Shown here: positions 1-9,500 of the stretch, one piece after another
Numbering within the stretch: position 1 is the stretch's first letter
Layout of the letters: each line of letters starts with the position of its first letter
DNA from: a virus
Lineage: Duplodnaviria; Heunggongvirae; Uroviricota; Caudoviricetes
DNA length: 9,500 bases
Virus record (IMG/VR): IMGVR_UViG_2648501498_000020
Strand: one strand, 5' to 3'
Program-made: the position numbers and the translations under genes
Notes under the pieces: generated by a model
What the model saw: only the letters and a program-made list of their open reading frames with translations
Databases searched by the model: none
What the model was told of the DNA's origin: nothing

Positions 1-345
1 AGATGAAAAATTGAACCACACATTATATTGCTGATCACTATAATATGGCGGTGTCATGTCATGAACAGGACAAGGGTGCTTATCGAAATTGGTAGAAATA
101 CCGATTAAATTTGCAAAGTATATTTTCAACTGTCCACTATCAAAAAGGTATATTTCCAAAGGATTATTTTCAGATATTTGATCTTTTAAATCATTAAACT
201 CCCTTGGACATTGTTCATCAGCTTTTGCCCACCATCCCCACCAAACTGAGCCCTTAGATTTGATTATATCCTGATGTAGAGTGATTGTTTCTCCGGCGGG
301 TGTGACCAAATCCCTGAAACGAAGAATGATAGTTTTGCAATTCAT
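1..345 (-). CDS. hypothetical protein, AT-rich accessory gene (first 115 codons; continues beyond window start)
   Basis: Minus-strand ATG at 345-343 with AAGGAA Shine-Dalgarno 8 nt upstream; 115 codons to position 1 with no stop (MNCKTIILRFRDLVTPAGETITLHQDIIKSKGSVWWGWWAKADEQ...). Region is about 70% A+T, unlike the rest of the window. Not in the ORF track because it runs off the edge. Product not recognised. Confidence 0.6.
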   Translation of the reverse strand, partial: MNCKTIILRFRDLVTPAGETITLHQDIIKSKGSVWWGWWAKADEQCPREFNDLKDQISENNPLEIYLFDSGQLKIYFANLIGISTNFDKHPCPVHDMTPPYYSDQQYNVWFNFSS

Positions 346-430
346 TTATATTCCTTCAATATTCATTTAAATGTCGGGTTCTCTCTACTGATATAAATTA
401 CAATTAAAATCATTGGTAGGGAAGCGCGCA

Positions 431-449
431 GTGCTTTCCCCGCCTCGCC
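431..449. other. cos site: P2/P4-type 19-nt cohesive-end sequence
   Basis: Plus strand reads GTGCTTTCCCCGCCTCGCC, the exact reverse complement of GGCGAGGCGGGGAAAGCAC, which I recall as the P2/P4 cohesive end. GC-rich hairpins follow at 450-520. Confidence 0.75.
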
Positions 450-550
450 CGCCCGCTTTGCGGGGCGGTTTCAATGCAGTTGCACTGACACGCTCAGGCC
501 GCGCCGGGAATGGCGCGGTCTGCAGAAAATGAGGCAGGAAAACGCATGCA

Positions 551-583
551 AAGCCATGCACCTTATCGATGCATGGCTTTTTT
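551..583. terminator. terminator-like hairpin between psu and cos
   Basis: Perfect 10-bp stem AAGCCATGCA (551-560) / TGCATGGCTT (570-579) with 9-nt loop, followed by a T-run on the plus strand (578-583); on the minus strand the hairpin is followed by GCATGCGTTTT. Lies just downstream of the psu stop, so it probably ends the sid-delta-psu transcript and may act bidirectionally. Confidence 0.45.
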
Positions 584-612
584 CAGTAAAACGGGCGGAT
601 TTTCGGGGAATT

Positions 613-1185
613 TTACACAGACTGATGTGATTCCAGTTGCGCACTTTTACGCGAAAAAATCATGTTCTGCGCAGGGGTGAATTTTTCACGGCTGTCATCC
701 ACCGAAGCCGCGTCAGGCCTGAATCCGATGGTCGTTAAAATGTCACTATCCTGTGCGGAATAATTAATTTTTTCCCCCTTCGCAAGCCAGGACAGAAGGG
801 CTTCACGCAGGGCATCTGTGGCACGCTGTATGGCACAGTTTCGGGCAATGGCCGTCAGCTCACTGTATCCCATCAGCTCCGGTGCCAGTGCCGCCGCCAG
901 TGCTGTGCCGTGCTGCTGCATAAAATCATTCAGCCGGTCGCGGATGCTGATGTGCTGAACGGCTTCATGCGAACGAATATAACGACCGGCGGCCTGATTC
1001 ACCTGCCATTTTCTGACTTCGATAATATTGCGTAATTCGTCCAGGCGACTGACGTTTCTGCCTTCCCCGGACAGAAGCCGCAGATATTCCTGTTCGGCCG
1101 CAGCCAGCTCATTTTTGCGTTGCAGCCATGCTGCTTTGTTATTCTGACAGGTGTCAAAGGCCTGCTGTAAGGCTGTGCTCTCCAT
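613..1185 (-). CDS. psu: Psu, polarity suppression protein (Rho antagonist / capsid decoration), P4-type
   Basis: 190-aa ORF recognised as P4 Psu; length matches my recollection. GAGAAAGAGA purine-rich SD upstream of the ATG. Last gene of the minus-strand late operon. Confidence 0.9.
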   Translation of the reverse strand: MESTALQQAFDTCQNNKAAWLQRKNELAAAEQEYLRLLSGEGRNVSRLDELRNIIEVRKWQVNQAAGRYIRSHEAVQHISIRDRLNDFMQQHGTALAAALAPELMGYSELTAIARNCAIQRATDALREALLSWLAKGEKINYSAQDSDILTTIGFRPDAASVDDSREKFTPAQNMIFSRKSAQLESHQSV

Positions 1186-1258
1186 CGTTATCTCTTTCTC
1201 ATCATGCTGAAGAATAAAAATACGGTGTGCGGCGACGGCCGGGGTTAACCGGCAGCCC

Positions 1259-1759
1259 TCATTCCAGACGCAGCGAATATGATTGTGTTTTTAACCGTAC
1301 TGGCGGCAGTTCCTGTTTTTCATGCAGGCGTTCTGCCAGTTCGTCCGGCGTGACCGGGCGGACAATGAAGCGGGTGATGGTCTGAAGCGTTTTAAACACC
1401 AGACCACAGCCCGGATCCGTGCACACATAAAAACGCTCGGTGACTTCCTGAGACAGACGCCGCGATGTTCTTGACAGTGCAAGGCCTTTACATCTCCGAC
1501 AACAATATCCGGTAACAAGCATTCTTTTCGGGCGTTTCATACTGCCGGAGGCTGACGTCAGTGAATCGCGGTATCTCTGTTTGCCTGAAATGTATTCCAT
1601 TCCTGAATCTTTACTGTCAGAGAAAAAGCTTTCACTCGCTTCAAATGTCGCAGAGCAATAAATATTCCGGCACTGTGCAATCATTATCTTGGTGCCATCG
1701 TCCATGAAATGTGCGCGACGAGTGTGAGCAACATGTCCACACGACGGGCAGTAAATCAT
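1259..1759 (-). CDS. delta: Delta, late-gene transcriptional activator (tandem Ogr-like zinc finger)
   Basis: 166 aa with two Cys4 modules (CPSCGH...CRNIYC and CCRRC...CTDPGC), consistent with a duplicated Ogr-type zinc finger as in P4 Delta. Start ATG overlaps the sid stop (ATGA). Confidence 0.9.
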   Translation of the reverse strand: MIYCPSCGHVAHTRRAHFMDDGTKIMIAQCRNIYCSATFEASESFFSDSKDSGMEYISGKQRYRDSLTSASGSMKRPKRMLVTGYCCRRCKGLALSRTSRRLSQEVTERFYVCTDPGCGLVFKTLQTITRFIVRPVTPDELAERLHEKQELPPVRLKTQSYSLRLE

Positions 1760-2490
1760 GACAGCAGTCCTCTGGCCTTAAGCTCTGCACCCTGCTGGTC
1801 TATTTTGTCCTGCCACACCTTGCGCTGTGCCGGTGTGCCTGCCACCTCATAATCCATGTGCGGGAGTGTTGCCGCTGACAGCCCGGTCAGCCGGAGAACC
1901 GGCTCGCCGGTGAGGCTGATTTGCATCTGTTTAATTTTCTGTTCCAGCGATGATTTCACCTGCTGCATGACAGCCTTTTCCGGTGCGACGTAGCCCTGAT
2001 GGCCGGTGGTGTTGGCGAGCGGATTTTCCTGTACCAGAATGCTCAGATGCATTGCCCGGACAAGCGCCTCACAGGTTTCATTCAGGGCGTGTTCCAGCTC
2101 ATGCTCTGCATACAGACTCAGAAGGTGATGATGTGCCTTCCGGTAGGCGGTGGCCGTGCTGTCACACGCCCCTTTCAGGCGTTCGCGTTCAAAATTCAGC
2201 ACCACGGCCAGATTGTCATATTCCTGTACCAGCTCCCGGCGTGCCACGCGCTCAATGTGGCGCTGTTTCAGCTCGTCGCTCAGGACACCACCGGCTGCAC
2301 GAAAGGCCGTGCGCCAGTCGTCAGCGTCGTTTCCGTCGGCCTGCGCCAGCGCATTTTTTTCCTGCTCTGCCCGTTCAATGGCCGTGACGGTCTCATCCAT
2401 CAGGCGGGCGTTCTCAAGATGGGCGGCTCTGGCCTTTTCCAGTTGTGCCAGCGCGGGTTGCAGATATTCAGGGATGGTGTTGTCAGACAT
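1756..2490 (-). CDS. sid: Sid, external scaffold / capsid size determination protein
   Basis: ORF track begins at a GTG (2508), but the ATG at 2490-2488 has AGGAG 8 nt upstream and gives 244 aa, the P4 Sid length I recall. Coiled-coil-like, Ala/Glu/Leu/Gln-rich sequence. Confidence 0.85.
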   Translation of the reverse strand: MSDNTIPEYLQPALAQLEKARAAHLENARLMDETVTAIERAEQEKNALAQADGNDADDWRTAFRAAGGVLSDELKQRHIERVARRELVQEYDNLAVVLNFERERLKGACDSTATAYRKAHHHLLSLYAEHELEHALNETCEALVRAMHLSILVQENPLANTTGHQGYVAPEKAVMQQVKSSLEQKIKQMQISLTGEPVLRLTGLSAATLPHMDYEVAGTPAQRKVWQDKIDQQGAELKARGLLS

Positions 2491-2562
2491 TTTCCGGCTC
2501 CTCGTCACTTCAGGTTAAGAAAATTGTGACGTACACCGGACAACAACACGACGCATTGCAGA

Positions 2563-2580
2563 TGTGCCAGCCCTGACACA
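2563..2580 (-). promoter_or_regulatory. candidate Delta/Ogr activator site (TGT-N12-ACA) for Psid
   Basis: TGTGCCAGCCCTGACACA fits the TGT-N12-ACA dyad of P2/P4 late promoters. Its centre is about 55 bp upstream of a predicted minus-strand start near 2516, leaving a ~26-nt leader before the sid ATG. Low-information motif. Confidence 0.3.
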
Positions 2581-2659
2581 GGAGACTCATCCTCAGACCG
2601 GCAAGCCAGGAAAAGGTCGCAGGAAAAACCGGCTTACTGTTTGTTTTTTTATATTTTAC

Positions 2660-2763
2660 TGTTCACCTCTGTTCACCTTAATAAAAAAGATAAGTAATAC
2701 AGTAAATTAAATGGTGAACAATCGCAGTAATGACTGTTCACCGTCTGTTCACCACTGTTCACC
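2660..2763. repeat. ori-like iteron cluster: six copies of octamer TGTTCACC (five direct, one inverted)
   Basis: TGTTCACC at 2660, 2670, 2735, 2746, 2756 and inverted GGTGAACA at 2713; an 80-bp stretch of >80% A+T follows (2770-2850). Same octamer recurs in crr (7494-7796). I recall P4 ori as holding six such alpha-binding iterons about 4.5 kb from crr; the spacing here is about 4.9 kb. Confidence 0.7.
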
Positions 2764-2922
2764 CGTTCATGGACTTTTTGTGCTGTTTATTACTTTTTAT
2801 TTTTATTAATTAACTGAAATAAATAAGAAAAAAACAATTTGTATTTCACTATAATTTTTTCCAGCTCCTTCCAGAGCGTTTTAAAGCTATCTGGCGTTGA
2901 TGTGCAAAAAACACACAGCAAT

Positions 2923-2940
2923 TGTAAGGCTGCCGGAACA
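2923..2940 (+). promoter_or_regulatory. candidate Delta/Ogr activator site (TGT-N12-ACA) for the late leftward promoter PLL upstream of vis
   Basis: TGTAAGGCTGCCGGAACA; centre about 110 bp upstream of the vis ATG. A start near 2986 would lie about 400 bp upstream of the PLE-like promoter, as I recall for P4. Confidence 0.3.
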
Positions 2941-3042
2941 AATCCCCCCTGTTGCGTCTGCTGAAAATATTCACAAAATAAAGCGCTACCCGAAGCCGGA
3001 CGGACTTATCCGGTGCTGTATGGACATTAACGAGGTAGCCCG

Positions 3043-3309
3043 ATGCAAGCTGTTTTTTCTTCCCCGTCTCCCGCCCCTGTGACGCCACTGATGCCGCTGC
3101 CGGACATCACGCAGGAGCGTTTTTTACGTCTGCCGGAAGTGATGCACCTGTGCGGCCTGTCACGCTCGACCATCTATGAACTCATCCGTAAGGGGGAATT
3201 TCCGCCGCAGGTGAGTCTTGGCGGTAAAAATGTGGCCTGGCTGCACTCTGAAGTCACTGCATGGATGGCCGGGCGCATTGCCGGACGCAAACGGGGGTAC
3301 GACGCATGA
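3043..3309 (+). CDS. vis: Vis, AlpA-family small DNA-binding regulator / excision directionality factor
   Basis: 88-aa ORF; GAGG SD 5-6 nt upstream of the ATG at 3043. [28 protein letters not shown] is a typical AlpA/Xis-type helix-turn-helix. Stop TGA 3307-3309 overlaps a downstream ATG (ATGA). Confidence 0.8.
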
Positions 3310-3905
3310 TGATGCCCGCTCTGCAAAAACTCCCTTTTTCTGGCTTGCCTTTTTCCGGCATTTGCGGATATAGTTTTTCCGCTGCCGCAAAATCGGCAGC
3401 CGGGCGTGAGAACCCGAGCAATCTAACGGCGACATATGACGCGCCATGCGTCTTTTTTTGTGTCGCAATCAACGCCACAGAGCGCCAGATTATGGTGTGG
3501 TGTGTGGTCAGTCGTGCAGATGGCATTCCGTGCATCCTGCCCGCGTCCGCTCATTATGCCGCAGAGTCAATGGTAGCTCAGGCGGGGCAGCCTCCGGGCT
3601 GGCCGGTATCCGTTAGAGCCGGTATTCTCACCCCCGTCTGGGCTATCGCCATCGAGCGTGAGAACTCCGGCGATAGCGTAACCTGCTATCTAACGGAGGC
3701 TGCCATCATGGCTACAACCCTTACCCCCTCACACCCTGAATTTGTCTTTGTGTTTGCGGCTGTCCGTCGCGCAGACCGTCATCCTCGTATCTGTATGCTT
3801 CGCACCGTCGCCGGTGATGAACGCAGCGCCCGCCGTTCCCTTGTCCGTGACTATGTGCTCTCCCTTGCTGCCCGTCTGCCGGTGGTGGAGGTGTCCCGTG
3901 CGTAA
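3306..3905 (+). CDS. long ORF (199 codons from ATGATGATG) spanning the immunity leader; possibly translated only on read-through from vis
   Basis: ORF track gives 3261..3905 (214 aa); the ATG at 3306 overlaps the vis stop (ATGA) and gives 199 codons. It runs across seqA, cI and seqC, and its start lies upstream of the PLE-like promoter, so PLE transcripts could not encode all of it. Coding status uncertain. Confidence 0.35.
3345..3374 (+). promoter_or_regulatory. candidate sigma70 promoter (PLE-like): TTGCCT -N18- TATAGT
   Basis: -35 TTGCCT (3345-3350) and -10 TATAGT (3369-3374), giving a predicted start near 3381, just upstream of seqA. Sequence inspection only. Confidence 0.4.
3406..3429 (+). 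promoter_or_regulatory. seqA: leader target complementary to cI RNA
   Basis: GTGAGAA...TCTAACGG; both blocks are exact reverse complements of the CCGTTAGA and TTCTCAC blocks at 3610-3631. Confidence 0.5.
3560..3650 (+). ncRNA. cI: cI immunity RNA region (approximate bounds) containing seqB
   Basis: seqB CCGTTAGAGCCGGTATTCTCAC (3610-3631) is complementary in two blocks to seqA (3406-3429) and seqC (3658-3696), with GC-rich hairpins around it (CAGCC-TCCG-GGCTG). Matches the P4 arrangement as I recall it. Ends not determinable from sequence. Confidence 0.5.
3658..3696 (+). promoter_or_regulatory. seqC: second target complementary to cI RNA, overlapping the kil ribosome-binding site
   Basis: GTGAGAA (3658-3664) ... 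TCTAACGG (3689-3696); the 3' block overlaps GGAGG (3695-3699), the SD of the ATG at 3708. Confidence 0.5.
3708..3905 (+). CDS. kil: Kil-like small protein (65 aa; in-frame internal start of the long ORF, eta possibly nested)
   Basis: ATG 3708 preceded by GGAGG (3695-3699) at 8-nt spacing; [65 protein letters not shown]. First start codon with a strong SD downstream of the cI region. kil/eta naming is from memory of the P4 literature. Confidence 0.5.
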
Positions 3906-4185
3906 TAAAAAAGCCCCTCAGACCGTCTCAGCACGTCATGACGCCCGTGAACACCTCAGCATTGAGGCTTACCATAAGCTCAACCGCGCCAGCGCCGTAT
4001 CCCGGTTTGTTGGGGGTGATTTGATTCACCGTGAACTCTCCGGTCTGCATCAGCTCTACATTCCGCATATTTTCAGCTACCTGAATGAAGATATTGATTT
4101 TGTGCTGAATGAGCTGAAAGCCAAAGGCCTGTGCCGCGATTTTCTCGCCCAGCAGAAAGACCGGGGAGACAGGACGCATGTTTGA
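3898..4185 (+). CDS. epsilon: Epsilon, anti-repressor of helper prophage (derepression of P2-like helper)
   Basis: GTG start at 3898 with GGAGG 8 nt upstream, overlapping the kil stop; gives 95 aa, the length I recall for P4 Epsilon. The ORF-track version (3742..4185) has an implausible N-terminal extension overlapping kil. Confidence 0.7.
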
Positions 4186-4633
4186 TTTTCCCCAGCCCGG
4201 TGAGATTTACCGTTCTGCCGGTTTTCCCGATGTGGCCGTGGTCGGCATTCTGGAAGACGGTATTCCGTGGGAAATGCCGTACCGCTGCCCGGACATTGTC
4301 TGGAATCCGTACCGCCGTAAATTCAGTATCCTTGTGCGTATCCTCGCTGACGGGCGCACCACAGACATCCCGCTGGGGCGTTTTCTGCGGGAATTTACCT
4401 GTGACCGTCCTGACCTGTTCAAACGCAGCCCCGTAAACCGGCATGCGGTACTGAAAGAAATGGCCGGAGACCCGGAATTACAGAAATGGCGGGAAAAATA
4501 TCTGGATATTTACCCGCAGGACCCTGTTCCGGTCAGCCGGGCAGCACCGGTAGCGCGGGAATGGCGGGAAATTCCCCGCACGGAGCCTGACCCGGAAACC
4601 ACCCCGGATAACAGTTACCGCAATTATCTGTAA
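4178..4633 (+). CDS. hypothetical protein, P4 orf151-like
   Basis: 151-aa ORF; start overlaps the epsilon stop; GGGGAGACAGG SD-like sequence upstream. Same size and position as P4 orf151. Confidence 0.8.
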   Translation: MFDFPQPGEIYRSAGFPDVAVVGILEDGIPWEMPYRCPDIVWNPYRRKFSILVRILADGRTTDIPLGRFLREFTCDRPDLFKRSPVNRHAVLKEMAGDPELQKWREKYLDIYPQDPVPVSRAAPVAREWREIPRTEPDPETTPDNSYRNYL

Positions 4634-4768
4634 TTAAAAAACGACACCCGAAAAATTAAATGTGCGTATTCGCGCAGGGATACGCACGTCTTCAGGAGAC
4701 GCAGATATGCCTTATCAGTTAATGCAACCGGCACGGAATGCAGTCATCTGTCACAGGGAGGAAAGCAA

Positions 4769-5089
4769 ATGAAAACACCCTTACCGCCCGTCTTACGCGC
4801 TGCCCTTTACCGTCGCGCTGTCGCCTGTGCCTGGCTGACCGTGTGCGAACGTCAGCACCGCTACCCGCATCTCACCCTTGAGTCACTGGAGGCGGCCATC
4901 GCCGCTGAGCTGGAAGGCTTTTATCTGCGCCAGCACGGTGAGGAAAAAGGGCGTCAGATAGCCTGTGCCCTGCTGGAAGATTTAATGGAATCCGGCCCCC
5001 TGAAGGCCGCGCCGTCGCTGTCCTTTCTCGGGCTGGTTGTGATGGATGAACTCTGTGCCCGTCACATAAAAGCGCCGGTACTGCACTGA
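4769..5089 (+). CDS. hypothetical protein, P4 orf106-like
   Basis: 106-aa ORF with GGGAGG SD 7-8 nt upstream; sits immediately upstream of alpha. Function unknown. Confidence 0.75.
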
Positions 5090-5103
5090 AGGAGAACAAC
5101 ACC

Positions 5104-5976
5104 ATGAAAATGAACGTAACCGCCACCGTCAGCCATGCACTCGGCCACTGGCCGCGTATTCTCCCGGCGCTGGGGATTCAGGTGCTGAAAAACCGTCATC
5201 AGCCCTGTCCGGTCTGTGGCGGGAGTGACCGCTTCCGTTTTGATGACAGGGAGGGGCGCGGCACCTGGTACTGCAATCAGTGTGGTGCCGGTGACGGCCT
5301 GAAACTGGTTGAAAAGGTGTTTGGTGTTTCCCCGTCCGACGCGGCCGCAAAGGTGGCTGCCGTGACCGGCAGCCTGCCCCCGGCTGACCCGGCAGTGACG
5401 GCCGCCGCCGGTGCTGAAACAGAAGCCGCCCGGAAGAACGCCGCCGCACTGGCACAAACCCTGATGGCGAAAACCCGTCCCGGAACCGGTAACGCCTACC
5501 TGACCCGCAAGGGCTTTCCCGGCCGGGAATGCCGGATGCTGACCGGCACACACAGAGCCGGTGGCGTGAGCTGGCGTGCCGGTGACCTTGTGGTGCCACT
5601 GTATGACGACAGCGGCGAACTGGTTAACCTTCAGTTAATCAGTGCTGACGGCCGTAAGCGCACCCTGAAAGGCGGACAGGTCAGGGGCACCTGTCACATC
5701 CTTGAAGGACAGAATCAGGCCGGAAAACGTCTGTGGATAGCGGAGGGATACGCGACCGCACTTACCGTGCATCACCTGACCGGTGAAACGGTGATGGTGG
5801 CGCTTTCTTCCGTGAACCTCCTTTCTCTGGCCAGCCTTGCCCGGCAGAAGCATCCGGCCTGTCAGATTGTCCTTGCCGCAGACCGTGACCTCAGCGGTGA
5901 CGGCCAGAAAAAAGCCGCCGCAGCCGCAGATGCGTGTGAAGGTGTTGTTGCCCTGCCGCCGGTCTTCGGTGACTGA
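5104..5976 (+). CDS. alpha: Alpha N-terminal fragment: zinc-binding + TOPRIM primase domain (ends at in-frame TGA)
   Basis: AGGAGA SD 8 nt upstream; CPVCGGSDRFRFDD...WYCNQCG zinc-binding motif and EGYATALT primase motif. Ends ...PVFGD then TGA at 5974-5976. Confidence 0.85.
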   Translation: MKMNVTATVSHALGHWPRILPALGIQVLKNRHQPCPVCGGSDRFRFDDREGRGTWYCNQCGAGDGLKLVEKVFGVSPSDAAAKVAAVTGSLPPADPAVTAAAGAETEAARKNAAALAQTLMAKTRPGTGNAYLTRKGFPGRECRMLTGTHRAGGVSWRAGDLVVPLYDDSGELVNLQLISADGRKRTLKGGQVRGTCHILEGQNQAGKRLWIAEGYATALTVHHLTGETVMVALSSVNLLSLASLARQKHPACQIVLAADRDLSGDGQKKAAAAADACEGVVALPPVFGD

Positions 5977-6066
5977 AATGATGCCTTCACGCAGTACGGC
6001 GGGGAAGCCACCCGTAAGGCCATTTACGATGCCATCCGGCCACCGGCTGAAAGCCCGTTCGATACC

Positions 6067-7437
6067 ATGAGCGAAGCGGAGTTTTCCGCCATGAGTACCA
6101 GCGAAAAGGCCATGCGTATCTATGAGCATTACGGCGAGGCGCTCGCGGTCGATGCCAACGGCCAGCTTCTGTCCCGCTATGAAAATGGTGTCTGGAAGGT
6201 GCTGCCGCCACAGGACTTTGCCCGGGATGTGGCCGGGCTGTTTCAGCGTCTGCGCGCGCCGTTCTCCTCCGGGAAGGTGGCCTCCGTGGTGGACACCCTG
6301 AAGCTGATTATTCCGCAGCAGGAAGCCCCCTCCCGCCGCCTGATTGGCTTTCGTAACGGCGTGCTCGACACGCAGAGCGGCACGTTCCACCCGCACAGTC
6401 CGTCACACTGGATGCGCACCCTGTGCGATGTGGATTTCACCCCACCGGTGGAAGGGGAAACGCTGGAAACCCACGCCCCCGCGTTCTGGCGCTGGCTTGA
6501 CCGTGCCGCCGGTGGCCGTGCGGAAAAACGCGACGTGATTCTGGCCGCACTGTTTATGGTGCTGGCAAACCGCTACGACTGGCAGCTCTTTCTGGAGGTG
6601 ACCGGTCCCGGCGGCAGCGGCAAAAGTATCATGGCCGAAATAGCCACCCTGCTGGCCGGGGAGGATAACGCCACGTCGGCCACCATCGAGACGCTGGAAT
6701 CCCCGCGTGAACGTGCCGCGTTAACTGGCTTCTCACTGATACGCCTGCCGGACCAGGAAAAATGGAGCGGCGACGGAGCCGGACTCAAGGCCATCACCGG
6801 CGGCGATGCGGTGTCCGTTGACCCGAAATACCGGGATGCGTACTCCACGCACATCCCGGCGGTGATTCTGGCCGTGAACAATAACCCGATGCGCTTCACC
6901 GACCGCAGCGGCGGCGTGTCACGCCGGCGGGTGATTATTCACTTCCCGGAACAGATAGCCCCGCAGGAGCGCGACCCGCAGCTTAAGGACAAAATCACCC
7001 GCGAGCTGGCGGTCATCGTGCGTCACCTGATGCAGAAATTCAGCGACCCGATGCTCGCCCGGTCACTGCTTCAGTCCCAGCAGAACTCAGACGAGGCGCT
7101 GAACATCAAACGGGATGCCGACCCGACGTTTGATTTTATCGGCTATCTGGAAACCCTGCCGCAGACCAGCGGCATGTATATGGGGAACGCCAGTATCATC
7201 CCGCGTAATTACCGTAAATACCTCTATCACGCCTATCTGGCCTACATGGAGGCAAACGGCTACCGGAATGTACTCAGTCTGAAAATGTTCGGGCTGGGGC
7301 TACCGGTGATGCTGAAGGAATACGGACTGAATTACGAGAAGCGCCATACCAAACAGGGGATACAGACCAACCTGACACTGAAAGAGGAAAGCTACGGCGA
7401 CTGGCTGCCAAAATGTGACGACCCTGCGACAACCTGA
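6067..7437 (+). CDS. alpha: Alpha C-terminal fragment: D5/SF3-type helicase (Walker A GPGGSGKS) plus C-terminal DNA-binding region
   Basis: Same reading frame as 5104..5976; 30 stop-free sense codons lie between the TGA and the ATG at 6067. Walker A GPGGSGKS, Walker-B-like VILAVNN. No convincing SD before 6067. Confidence 0.8.
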   Translation: MSEAEFSAMSTSEKAMRIYEHYGEALAVDANGQLLSRYENGVWKVLPPQDFARDVAGLFQRLRAPFSSGKVASVVDTLKLIIPQQEAPSRRLIGFRNGVLDTQSGTFHPHSPSHWMRTLCDVDFTPPVEGETLETHAPAFWRWLDRAAGGRAEKRDVILAALFMVLANRYDWQLFLEVTGPGGSGKSIMAEIATLLAGEDNATSATIETLESPRERAALTGFSLIRLPDQEKWSGDGAGLKAITGGDAVSVDPKYRDAYSTHIPAVILAVNNNPMRFTDRSGGVSRRRVIIHFPEQIAPQERDPQLKDKITRELAVIVRHLMQKFSDPMLARSLLQSQQNSDEALNIKRDADPTFDFIGYLETLPQTSGMYMGNASIIPRNYRKYLYHAYLAYMEANGYRNVLSLKMFGLGLPVMLKEYGLNYEKRHTKQGIQTNLTLKEESYGDWLPKCDDPATT

Positions 7438-7453
7438 CCATCATGACTCATCT

Positions 7454-7478
7454 GACCGGCATCTGCCGGTCTTTTTTT
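7454..7478 (+). terminator. intrinsic terminator downstream of alpha
   Basis: GACCGGC-ATCT-GCCGGTC hairpin followed by TTTTTTT, 17 nt after the alpha stop. Confidence 0.7.
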
Positions 7479-7493
7479 ATCCCGACATCCCCC

Positions 7494-7796
7494 GAAGGTG
7501 AACAATCTACTGTTCACCCTTCACCGTATATTCACCCGTTATCACACTGAAATTAAAAGAGAAAAACGAAAGGTGAACAGTGTGAACAATCAAATCAAAA
7601 AAAACTTTTTTCTCCCTGTGTGATTTTCAGTACGGGGGATTAATCACCGGTATGAGTCACACCAGCAGAATGCCGGAGGTGAAGAATCGAATGTTCACCC
7701 TTCACCCATTATTCACCACCTATCATACTGAAATAAAAGGAGAAAAAAGAAAGGTGAACAGTGTGAACAGTTCTTTCGAAAAAAAATTTTTTTCCT
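7494..7796. repeat. crr (cis replication region): two ~120-bp direct repeats about 181 bp apart, each with TGTTCACC / GGTGAACA iterons
   Basis: Repeat 1 about 7494-7615, repeat 2 about 7675-7796 (GAAGGTGAACAATCTACTGTTCACCCTTCACC... vs GGAGGTGAAGAATCGAATGTTCACCCTTCACC...; both end AAAGGTGAACAGTGTGAACA + A/T run). Matches my recollection of P4 crr as two 120-bp direct repeats separated by 60 bp. Confidence 0.75.
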
Positions 7797-7939
7797 GTAC
7801 GATATAGCATCAATCCAAGTAAAAATGCGCTTTAATTTCACATTAACTTACAGCCATTGGTATACAATTAGGTATACGCACAAAAACTGAATTAAACAAA
7901 ATCGTTAAAAATCAAAGCAATATAATATTTATTCAAACT

Positions 7940-7962
7940 CCGCCAGCCCACCAAAATTCTCC
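7940..7962 (+). other. possible att core: CCA-terminated motif resembling the 3' end of a tRNA/tmRNA
   Basis: ATTCAAACTCCGCCAGCCCACCA has a TTCAAA T-loop-like segment, an acceptor-like segment and a terminal CCA, about 210 bp upstream of the int start. No full tRNA can be folded: upstream sequence is AT-rich. Speculative. Confidence 0.25.
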
Positions 7963-7999
7963 ATCGGTGATTACCAGAGTCATCCGATGAAGTCCTAAG

Positions 8000-8047
8000 A
8001 GCCCGCACGGCGCAAGCCCGCACGGCGCAAGCCCTGCGGGCTTTTTT
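8000..8047 (+). terminator. tandem 15-bp repeat (AGCCCGCACGGCGCA x2) forming a GC-rich hairpin followed by TTTTTT
   Basis: Two exact tandem copies at 8000-8014 and 8015-8029; stem GCCCGCA (8016-8022) / TGCGGGC (8035-8041) then T-run 8042-8047. On the plus strand, between the CCA motif and int. Confidence 0.45.
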
Positions 8048-8101
8048 GTGCCTTGAATTTGTCCCGCGAAGTCTGATGCCAACTAATTAAATCCGAACCT
8101 T

Positions 8102-8154
8102 TTAGGCACCTTGTTAGGCACCTCATAAAGCTTTATTGTTTTTGAGGTGCCTAA
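8102..8154. promoter_or_regulatory. three copies of 10-mer TTAGGCACCT (two direct, one inverted) upstream of int: candidate Int arm-type / autoregulatory sites
   Basis: TTAGGCACCT at 8102-8111 and 8114-8123; exact reverse complement AGGTGCCTAA at 8145-8154, ending 19 bp before the int ATG (8173). Confidence 0.45.
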
Positions 8155-8172
8155 AACTATGGAAACCCGGCA

Positions 8173-8229
8173 ATGGCAAGACAAACCAAACCTCTATCCG
8201 TTAAAGAAATCGAATCTGCTAAACCCAAG
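8173..8229 (+). pseudogene. int: tyrosine integrase (P4/CP4-57-like), N-terminal ~19 codons only, interrupted by IS insertion
   Basis: MARQTKPLSVKEIESAKPK resembles the conserved N-terminus of P4-family integrases. After codon 19 the frame reads [22 protein letters not shown], which belongs to the IS terminus. Junction placed at about 8229/8230 where the IS-like TGT begins; exact base uncertain. Confidence 0.6.

Positions 8230-9500
<1,271 letters not shown>

Follow-up and report, generated by a model that had tools for sequence, protein, structure and literature searches.

The satellite phage P4 carries a gene, eta, with a constitutive promoter internal to it, as described by Forti et al. 1999 (J Bacteriol 181:5225-5233) and summarized in a passage of PMC10111431. 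According to that passage, the constitutive transcript is soon terminated through interactions of the RNA at CI and seqA and yields the stable CI RNA on processing, Kil is a truncated form of the eta product, and full-length Eta is made from the late promoter only; eta is further described there as coupled to the alpA homologue, and its translation as preventing termination, so that transcription from the late promoter continues across eta into the genes beyond it. The CI-, seqA- and seqC-dependent termination of the primary untranslated transcript, together with the roles of seqA and seqC, is treated in PMC4825925. Here we analysed a stretch of 9,500 nucleotides (nt; hereafter, the window) from the IMG/VR virus record IMGVR_UViG_2648501498_000020, and describe a long open reading frame (ORF) at positions 3306 to 3905 that runs across its immunity RNAs; both this frame and its promoter-dependent switch are already known from P4 eta/kil.

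Related arrangements are found in the immI-type systems of P1 and P7 (c4 RNA, icd, ant), N15 (CA RNA, icd, antA) and PY54, whose RNA families are common to them and P4. In the immI region of P1, an antisense RNA blocks the translation of icd, which leads to termination upstream of the downstream genes. More generally, in translation-dependent protection from Rho and in leader-peptide attenuation, as in tna and trp, it is a ribosome on the leader that decides termination, whereas in P4 the choice is made by the promoter, that is, by whether or not the start codon is on the RNA, and not by ribosome stalling or metabolite sensing.

Among the immI-type systems, our comparison was based on N15 and PY54 only (P1 icd was not retrieved by tblastn with Kil at E <= 1e-3). 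Both resemble the window in having an isrK-like leader, a C4 RNA and then an Icd-like ORF. In N15, however, the Icd-like frame opens no earlier than the 5' end of C4 (L105, 1069-1371), the annotated icd of PY54 begins only after C4, and neither phage (N15, L105, 964-1371; PY54, L106, 969-1371) has a frame that crosses the isrK leader from upstream of the promoter or one that is coupled to an upstream gene. By this comparison, the eta extension and the two-promoter logic are specific to the P4 lineage among the systems examined (N15 and PY54).

The window itself is very close to P4. Region 3000-4200 aligns to P4 (X51522 / NC_001609, minus strand 9073-7873) without gaps and at 97.8% identity, and because of this identity the published P4 experiments carry over directly. 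The gene order of the window, as read from its ORFs, Pfam matches, the P4 annotation and RefSeq, is that of P4, and on these grounds the window carries a P4-type satellite prophage. It shares with P4 the length of the ORF, the ATGA junction with the upstream gene vis, the internal promoter PLE and the order seqA-CI-seqC, and differs from it in that seqA, the CI loop and seqC co-vary, and in a nonsense codon in the alpha gene of the window.

Anatomy of the eta frame and its promoters

The features of the locus, in order along the window, are the following; the Rfam matches within the frame all lie on the plus strand and all score above their gathering scores.

2923-2940, plus strand: TGT-N12-ACA dyad found by pattern search, candidate Delta/Ogr activator box of the late promoter PLL
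3043-3309, plus strand: vis (orf88), AlpA-family excisionase/regulator; 88-codon ORF, Pfam Phage_AlpA at E=7e-21, annotated in P4 as ORF88 / excisionase and transcriptional regulator
3306-3905, plus strand: eta (orf199), 199 codons plus the stop TAA (3903-3905), in frame with kil and with a common stop
3345-3374, plus strand: PLE, predicted constitutive early promoter inside eta, TTGCCT and TATAGT separated by 18 nt, -10 at 3369-3374, identical to P4
3368-3420, plus strand: c4-a1b1, Rfam match of 49.5 bits (gathering score 46.7)
3381-3458, plus strand: leader RNA with seqA, Rfam isrK, 72 bits
3566-3653, plus strand: CI immunity RNA, Rfam C4 antisense RNA, 74.5 bits (gathering score 45), full length
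3653-3704, plus strand: seqC, second CI target, a direct repeat of seqA that abuts and overlaps the Shine-Dalgarno sequence of kil
3708-3905, plus strand: kil, Icd-like host-killing/division-inhibitor gene nested in eta, 65 codons, same stop as eta, NCBIfam phage_ICD_like at E=1.6e-21

The start region of the long frame reads cgacgcATGATGATGccc, with ATGATGATG at 3306-3314 (positions 3300-3319 are cgacgcATGATGATGcccgc), and its ATG at 3306 overlaps the vis stop codon, TGA at 3307-3309, in the form ATGA, an overlap from which we infer translational coupling of eta to vis. An earlier reading of the window from its letters and a list of its ORFs (the sequence-only reading) had claimed that this ATG overlaps the vis stop and opens a 199-codon frame to 3905, and all of these coordinates are correct. 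It nonetheless gave 3261 as the start coordinate of the frame, because the mechanical ORF list begins at an earlier in-frame ATG within vis.

Eta is identical to the product of the same ORF of P4 at 190 of its 199 amino acids, and Kil is identical at 65 of 65. RefSeq holds an equivalent 600-nt ORF that overlaps the vis homologue by 4 nt and has the product name 'host cell division inhibitor Icd-like protein', and Pfam Phage_ASH (PF10554) matches Eta residues 22-146 with 95.1 bits against a cut-off of 26. By protein alignment and annotation, then, 3306-3905 is the eta gene of P4, with kil nested in frame at 3708. The published name orf199 fits a start at 3306. The kil start, ATG 3708, is preceded by the Shine-Dalgarno sequence GGAGG (3695-3699) and is the first well-signalled start downstream of PLE; the arrangement GGAG-N8-ATG is kept at kil in all relatives.

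A promoter scan of 2500-4300 returned TTGCCT-18-TATAGT as its only sigma-70-like site. The transcription start predicted from it (~3381) falls at the 5' end of the isrK match, 75 nt downstream of the ATG at 3306, and the consensus promoter match and the Rfam boundary at 3381 (a predicted start) together support the claim that eta starts upstream of PLE. Transcripts from PLE are therefore predicted to lack the eta start codon. Further upstream, the dyad at 2923-2940 has the form TGT-N12-ACA, the motif of the Delta/Ogr-activated late promoters of P2 and P4; its TGT and ACA are conserved in P4, and its interior differs. A late promoter PLL served by this candidate box would start near 2985, ~400 nt upstream of PLE.

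That the long frame runs across seqA, cI and seqC was also claimed from the sequence, and Rfam places isrK, c4-a1b1 and C4 inside the frame. The isrK family is a structural homologue of the P4 seqA leader (PMC4825925), and Rfam C4 is the CI immunity RNA of P4 (PMC10111431). The CI loop, TCCGTTAGA (3609-3617), is the specificity determinant and is complementary both to the seqA core TCTAACGG (3422-3429), at 8 of 8 positions, and to the seqC core TCTAACGGA (3689-3697), at 9 of 9. Another CI segment, GGCAGCCTCCG (3586-3596), is complementary at 11 of 11 positions to CGGAGGCTGCC (3694-3704), a target that holds the kil Shine-Dalgarno sequence GGAGG; because of this 11-nt complementarity of its first hairpin to the kil Shine-Dalgarno region, CI has an anti-Shine-Dalgarno segment besides its specificity loop. 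Direct repeats (D1/D2) and inverted repeats (I1, I3 and I4) are found around seqA, CI and seqC, and the leader (3381-3720) folds much better than its shuffled controls (z = -4.24). At its 3' end, the isrK match has a hairpin (3438-3452) and then seven T, a terminator-like site that corresponds to the P4 intrinsic terminator t1, reportedly described by Briani et al. 2000. The locus thus combines a C4 RNA, complementary targets on both sides of it and an Icd-like ORF downstream of them, which is the composition of the C4/CI antisense-RNA immunity type (Rfam clan CL00128).

Conservation of the frame among relatives

A search with Eta, in which one genome was taken per species, yielded 22 loci at 49-93% identity. 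At 20 loci (49-87% Eta identity), which come from Klebsiella, Kluyvera, Pseudescherichia, Atlantibacter, Mangrovibacter, Pantoea, Erwinia, Mixta and others, as well as in the window and P4, isrK and C4 lie inside an ORF of 174-199 codons; of the other Eta-search loci, two run off their contigs and in one, L019, the frame is broken. The distance from the ATG to the 5' end of isrK is 75 nt in the Enterobacteriaceae group, 51 nt in the Pantoea group and 69 nt in L012.

The start of the frame is conserved. Members of the Enterobacteriaceae group keep the ATGA junction to a vis of 88 amino acids wherever the contig includes the upstream gene in readable form (P4, L003, L005-L007 and L009-L011), and L008 shares the start context of its relatives, its contig stopping short of the upstream gene. 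The ATG of the Pantoea group is preceded at ~15 nt by a TGA, noted irrespective of reading frame, and by a GAGGAAA stretch. Of the run of triplets at the start, only the first ATG is conserved, as seen in L005 (ATGAATATG) and L010 (ATGAGACAG).

Over the eta span, the 21 related sequences contain no stop codon in the eta frame, compared to 101 in one of the remaining forward frames and 175 in the other. When only the part upstream of kil is counted, the eta frame again has none and the other forward frames have 81 and 105, or ~4-5 per sequence, and a Poisson estimate from these stop counts gives a chance of ~1% per sequence for an open stretch of 134 codons. Since the search with Eta could favour intact ORFs, a second search was made against IMG/VR with the Kil alignment alone. 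In this Kil-only set, 79 loci extend far enough upstream to be scored, and in 77 of them (52 of 54 when identical upstream sequences are counted once) the frame is open for at least 119 codons before the kil ATG. The conserved start precedes that ATG by 119, 127, 130, 131 or 134 codons, lengths that indicate insertions and deletions in whole codons; the frame is broken in the remaining two, L082 and L099. By these counts, the eta frame is clearly maintained by selection.

At all three loci with an interrupted eta, L019 (Apirhabdus) and L082 and L099 (IMG/VR), kil is present, and L019 has isrK and C4 as well. These loci may be decaying copies, or natural tests of the need for eta.

Proposed mechanism and competing explanations

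In the immune state, transcription would start from PLE inside eta, at ~3381, and give an RNA without the eta start codon, whose untranslated and strongly folded leader would be processed to CI RNA. CI would then pair with seqA and seqC, kil would stay untranslated, since seqC overlaps its ribosome-binding site, and transcription would end before the replication genes. Upon activation of PLL by Delta or Ogr, upstream of vis, the transcript would carry vis together with the overlapping eta start, and ribosomes finishing vis would re-initiate at ATG 3306 and translate across t1, CI, seqC and kil. Late transcripts would be insensitive to immunity because these translating ribosomes would block the terminator and the CI-target structures and shield the RNA from Rho. 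We infer that the physical cause is the passage of ribosomes through t1 and the CI fold, and it is plausible that eta translation disrupts the structure of cI.

We hold it as highly probable that the P4-type eta/kil promoter-choice mechanism explains this locus. The anatomy of the locus, its P4 identity and its conservation are observations made here. For the prevention of termination by eta translation, and for the production of full-length Eta from the late promoter alone, we draw on the literature summary, as it appears in the passage of PMC10111431; the upkeep of the frame among relatives agrees with read-through of the immunity terminators by translated late transcripts. The sequence-only reading had arrived at much the same picture: coupling to vis with a start upstream of the constitutive promoter, late-promoter transcripts that are translated through the CI region and resist termination, and PLE transcripts that offer only the internal start at 3708. 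All of these agree with the P4 account in that passage, and the compact promoter-dependent switch that was proposed on their basis equals the model of Forti et al. 1999 as given in PMC10111431, making it a rediscovery.

Some observations weigh against this mechanism or against its use at this particular locus. The starts of both PLE and PLL are predicted by consensus matches, and the TGT-N12-ACA pattern of the PLL box is weakly above chance, with 5 matches in the window against 1.95 expected, a weak excess when taken alone. The eta frame is broken in the three loci L019, L082 and L099, and the eta ORF is therefore dispensable, at least in decaying elements. Finally, the window copy has a nonsense codon in alpha (codon 291, 5974-5976, is TGA in place of the TGG, for Trp291, of an E. 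coli prophage copy with 99% identity) and an adjacent insertion sequence (IS) element, for which reason the switch may be out of use here. The element in the window is probably defective for replication, and this copy may be a decaying prophage.

Other explanations concern the frame itself, beginning with its extent. The ORF could start at ATG 3261 inside vis, the first ATG following the upstream in-frame stop, and would then have 214 codons; yet in L005, L006, L008, L009 and L011 an in-frame stop stands directly before the ATG that overlaps the vis stop, so that the extension to 3261 is unconserved, and both the conserved ATGA junction and the 199-codon form called by RefSeq speak against it. 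As the upstream ATG 3261 is not conserved and only the first ATG of the run is, we place the real start at 3306. We rejected the start at 3261, which is most improbable, on account of the in-frame stop that precedes the conserved ATG in relatives. A further explanation would deny that the region upstream of kil is translated at all: the open frame would be a passive by-product of G+C-rich, structured RNA, and kil the sole gene. At deep divergence there is indeed no codon-position signal upstream of kil, and conserved RNA structures dominate this region, but the same RNA-rich sequence is free of stops in the eta frame alone, its variants differ in length only by whole codons, and nearly all Kil-selected loci preserve the frame. 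Moreover, a purine-rich stretch precedes the start, which in every case coincides with or closely follows the stop of the gene upstream. N15 and PY54 have the same RNAs and no open frame across isrK, which argues that the RNAs do not force an open frame, and in the published account, according to the passage of PMC10111431, Eta is translated from the late promoter. An untranslated frame is thus hardly credible.

If the frame upstream of kil is translated, either its peptide or its translation could be under selection. In kil, change at third codon positions is 2.2 times that at positions 1-2 in the deep set, and the ratio of nonsynonymous to synonymous polymorphism (pN/pS) in close relatives is 0.10, whereas the first 134 codons have no third-position excess at deep divergence (ratios of 0.78-1.15); clear protein-level selection is seen in the kil part only. 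The conserved peptide stretches of the first 134 codons coincide exactly with isrK and C4, and the sequence between them is hypervariable, with a 15-codon length difference. In the isrK-C4 segment, change at deep divergence is equal at the three codon positions, a pattern that saturation or misalignment could also explain. These results count against the explanation that the first 134 residues of Eta form a functional domain (Ash, of the 'Bro network') and that the product acts in antitermination or other regulation, as does the finding that all nine amino acid differences between Eta and its P4 counterpart lie in these residues, seven of them at or beside the RNA blocks that differ from P4, and that none is conservative by BLASTP. 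Such a domain would be compatible with the promoter-choice mechanism, and is favoured by the Phage_ASH match, by the treatment of eta as the gene of a Bro-network protein in the passage of PMC10111431 and by a pN/pS of ~0.3 in two small RNA-free segments among close relatives, although these segments hold just 7 and 9 variable sites. We consider a functional domain unlikely, if still deserving of attention.

Upstream of kil, translation itself rather than the peptide may be what is selected. In the strict form of this proposal, the first 134 codons would be selected only for translation, as a 'ribosome runway' across t1, CI and seqC whose sequence follows the embedded RNAs, and we put this forward as a serious possibility, held tentatively. 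The Phage_ASH match covers isrK and C4 and, unlike kil, shows no third-position excess, and for this reason it may owe its conservation to the RNA rather than to the protein. Were the runway proposal true, the conservation of Phage_ASH would really be that of two RNA elements, and immunity types would evolve by RNA co-variation, with the avoidance of stops in one frame as the sole extra constraint. This comparative hint of selection on translation rather than on the peptide is the mildly new angle of the present analysis. The locus as such is a textbook-style case of promoter choice setting leader translation and hence termination, worked out for P4 in the 1990s, and the modest value added here is comparative, namely that the arrangement is kept across many Enterobacterales genera and many immunity types.

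Immunity type, neighbouring genes and annotation

Differences from P4 in the immunity region are nearly all confined to three short co-varying blocks, at seqA (3423-3428), the CI loop (3612-3617) and seqC (3691-3696, and also 3680-3684). The seqA and CI loop sequences are TCTAACGG and CCGTTAGA in the window, compared to TTCACAGG and CCTGTGAA in P4, and the pairing of the CI loop with seqA and seqC is preserved. Given that the three blocks co-vary with their pairing kept, a different immunity specificity is predicted, and the element in the window should differ from P4 in this respect. The determinant type of the window recurs in many P4-like contigs of IMG/VR (among them L026, L031, L032, L034, L037, L047, L051, L052, L091 and L101), and at least 10 different seqC cores precede the kil Shine-Dalgarno sequence among the loci examined. 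A comparable case is said to have been described by Sabbattini and colleagues in 1996, with retronphage phiR73 as a P4-like element of altered immunity specificity; in phiR73-type elements, compensating changes in the CI loop and in both of its targets reportedly give heteroimmunity while the architecture is kept.

The remaining genes of the window are listed below.

613-1185, minus strand: psu
1259-1759, minus strand: delta
1756-2508, minus strand: sid, next to which come the origin region and then vis/orf88
3898-4185, plus strand: epsilon, helper derepression protein, with a GTG start, from the P4 annotation mapped by alignment
4178-4633: orf151, with its ATG at 4178
4769-5089: orf106
5104-7437: alpha, primase/helicase gene
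8296-8958, minus strand: istB of an IS21-family (IS100kyp-like) element, beyond the end of P4-like homology at ~7954

The GTG of epsilon overlaps the end of eta and kil by 8 nt, and the ATG of orf151 overlaps the end of epsilon by 8 nt, giving a continuous series of overlapping junctions from vis through eta and epsilon to orf151. A 126-amino-acid ORF at 9075-9455 on the minus strand had no Pfam match.

Thousands of complete E. coli genomes contain similar prophages, and among the matches listed none covers the whole window; the best of those listed are 98.8% identical over window positions 1-7954 and 98.2% identical over 424-9500. The P4-like homology to several E. coli prophages ends near 7954.

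For annotation, the present results mean that the ORF of 199 codons spanning the immunity RNAs of P4 is real and conserved, and is neither an overlap artefact nor a 'cI repressor protein'. The P4-like satellite survey PMC8628076 leaves eta and kil unmentioned. In the P4 records (NC_001609 / X51522; L001 1990-2406), the label 'cI gene product / transcriptional repressor' is still given to an in-frame part of eta, 137 codons long, and 'polarity suppression Psu-like' to sid; both product names appear outdated or misplaced. In N15, the ORF once called a 'secondary immunity repressor' overlaps the C4 RNA and in this resembles the obsolete 137-codon 'cI protein' of P4.

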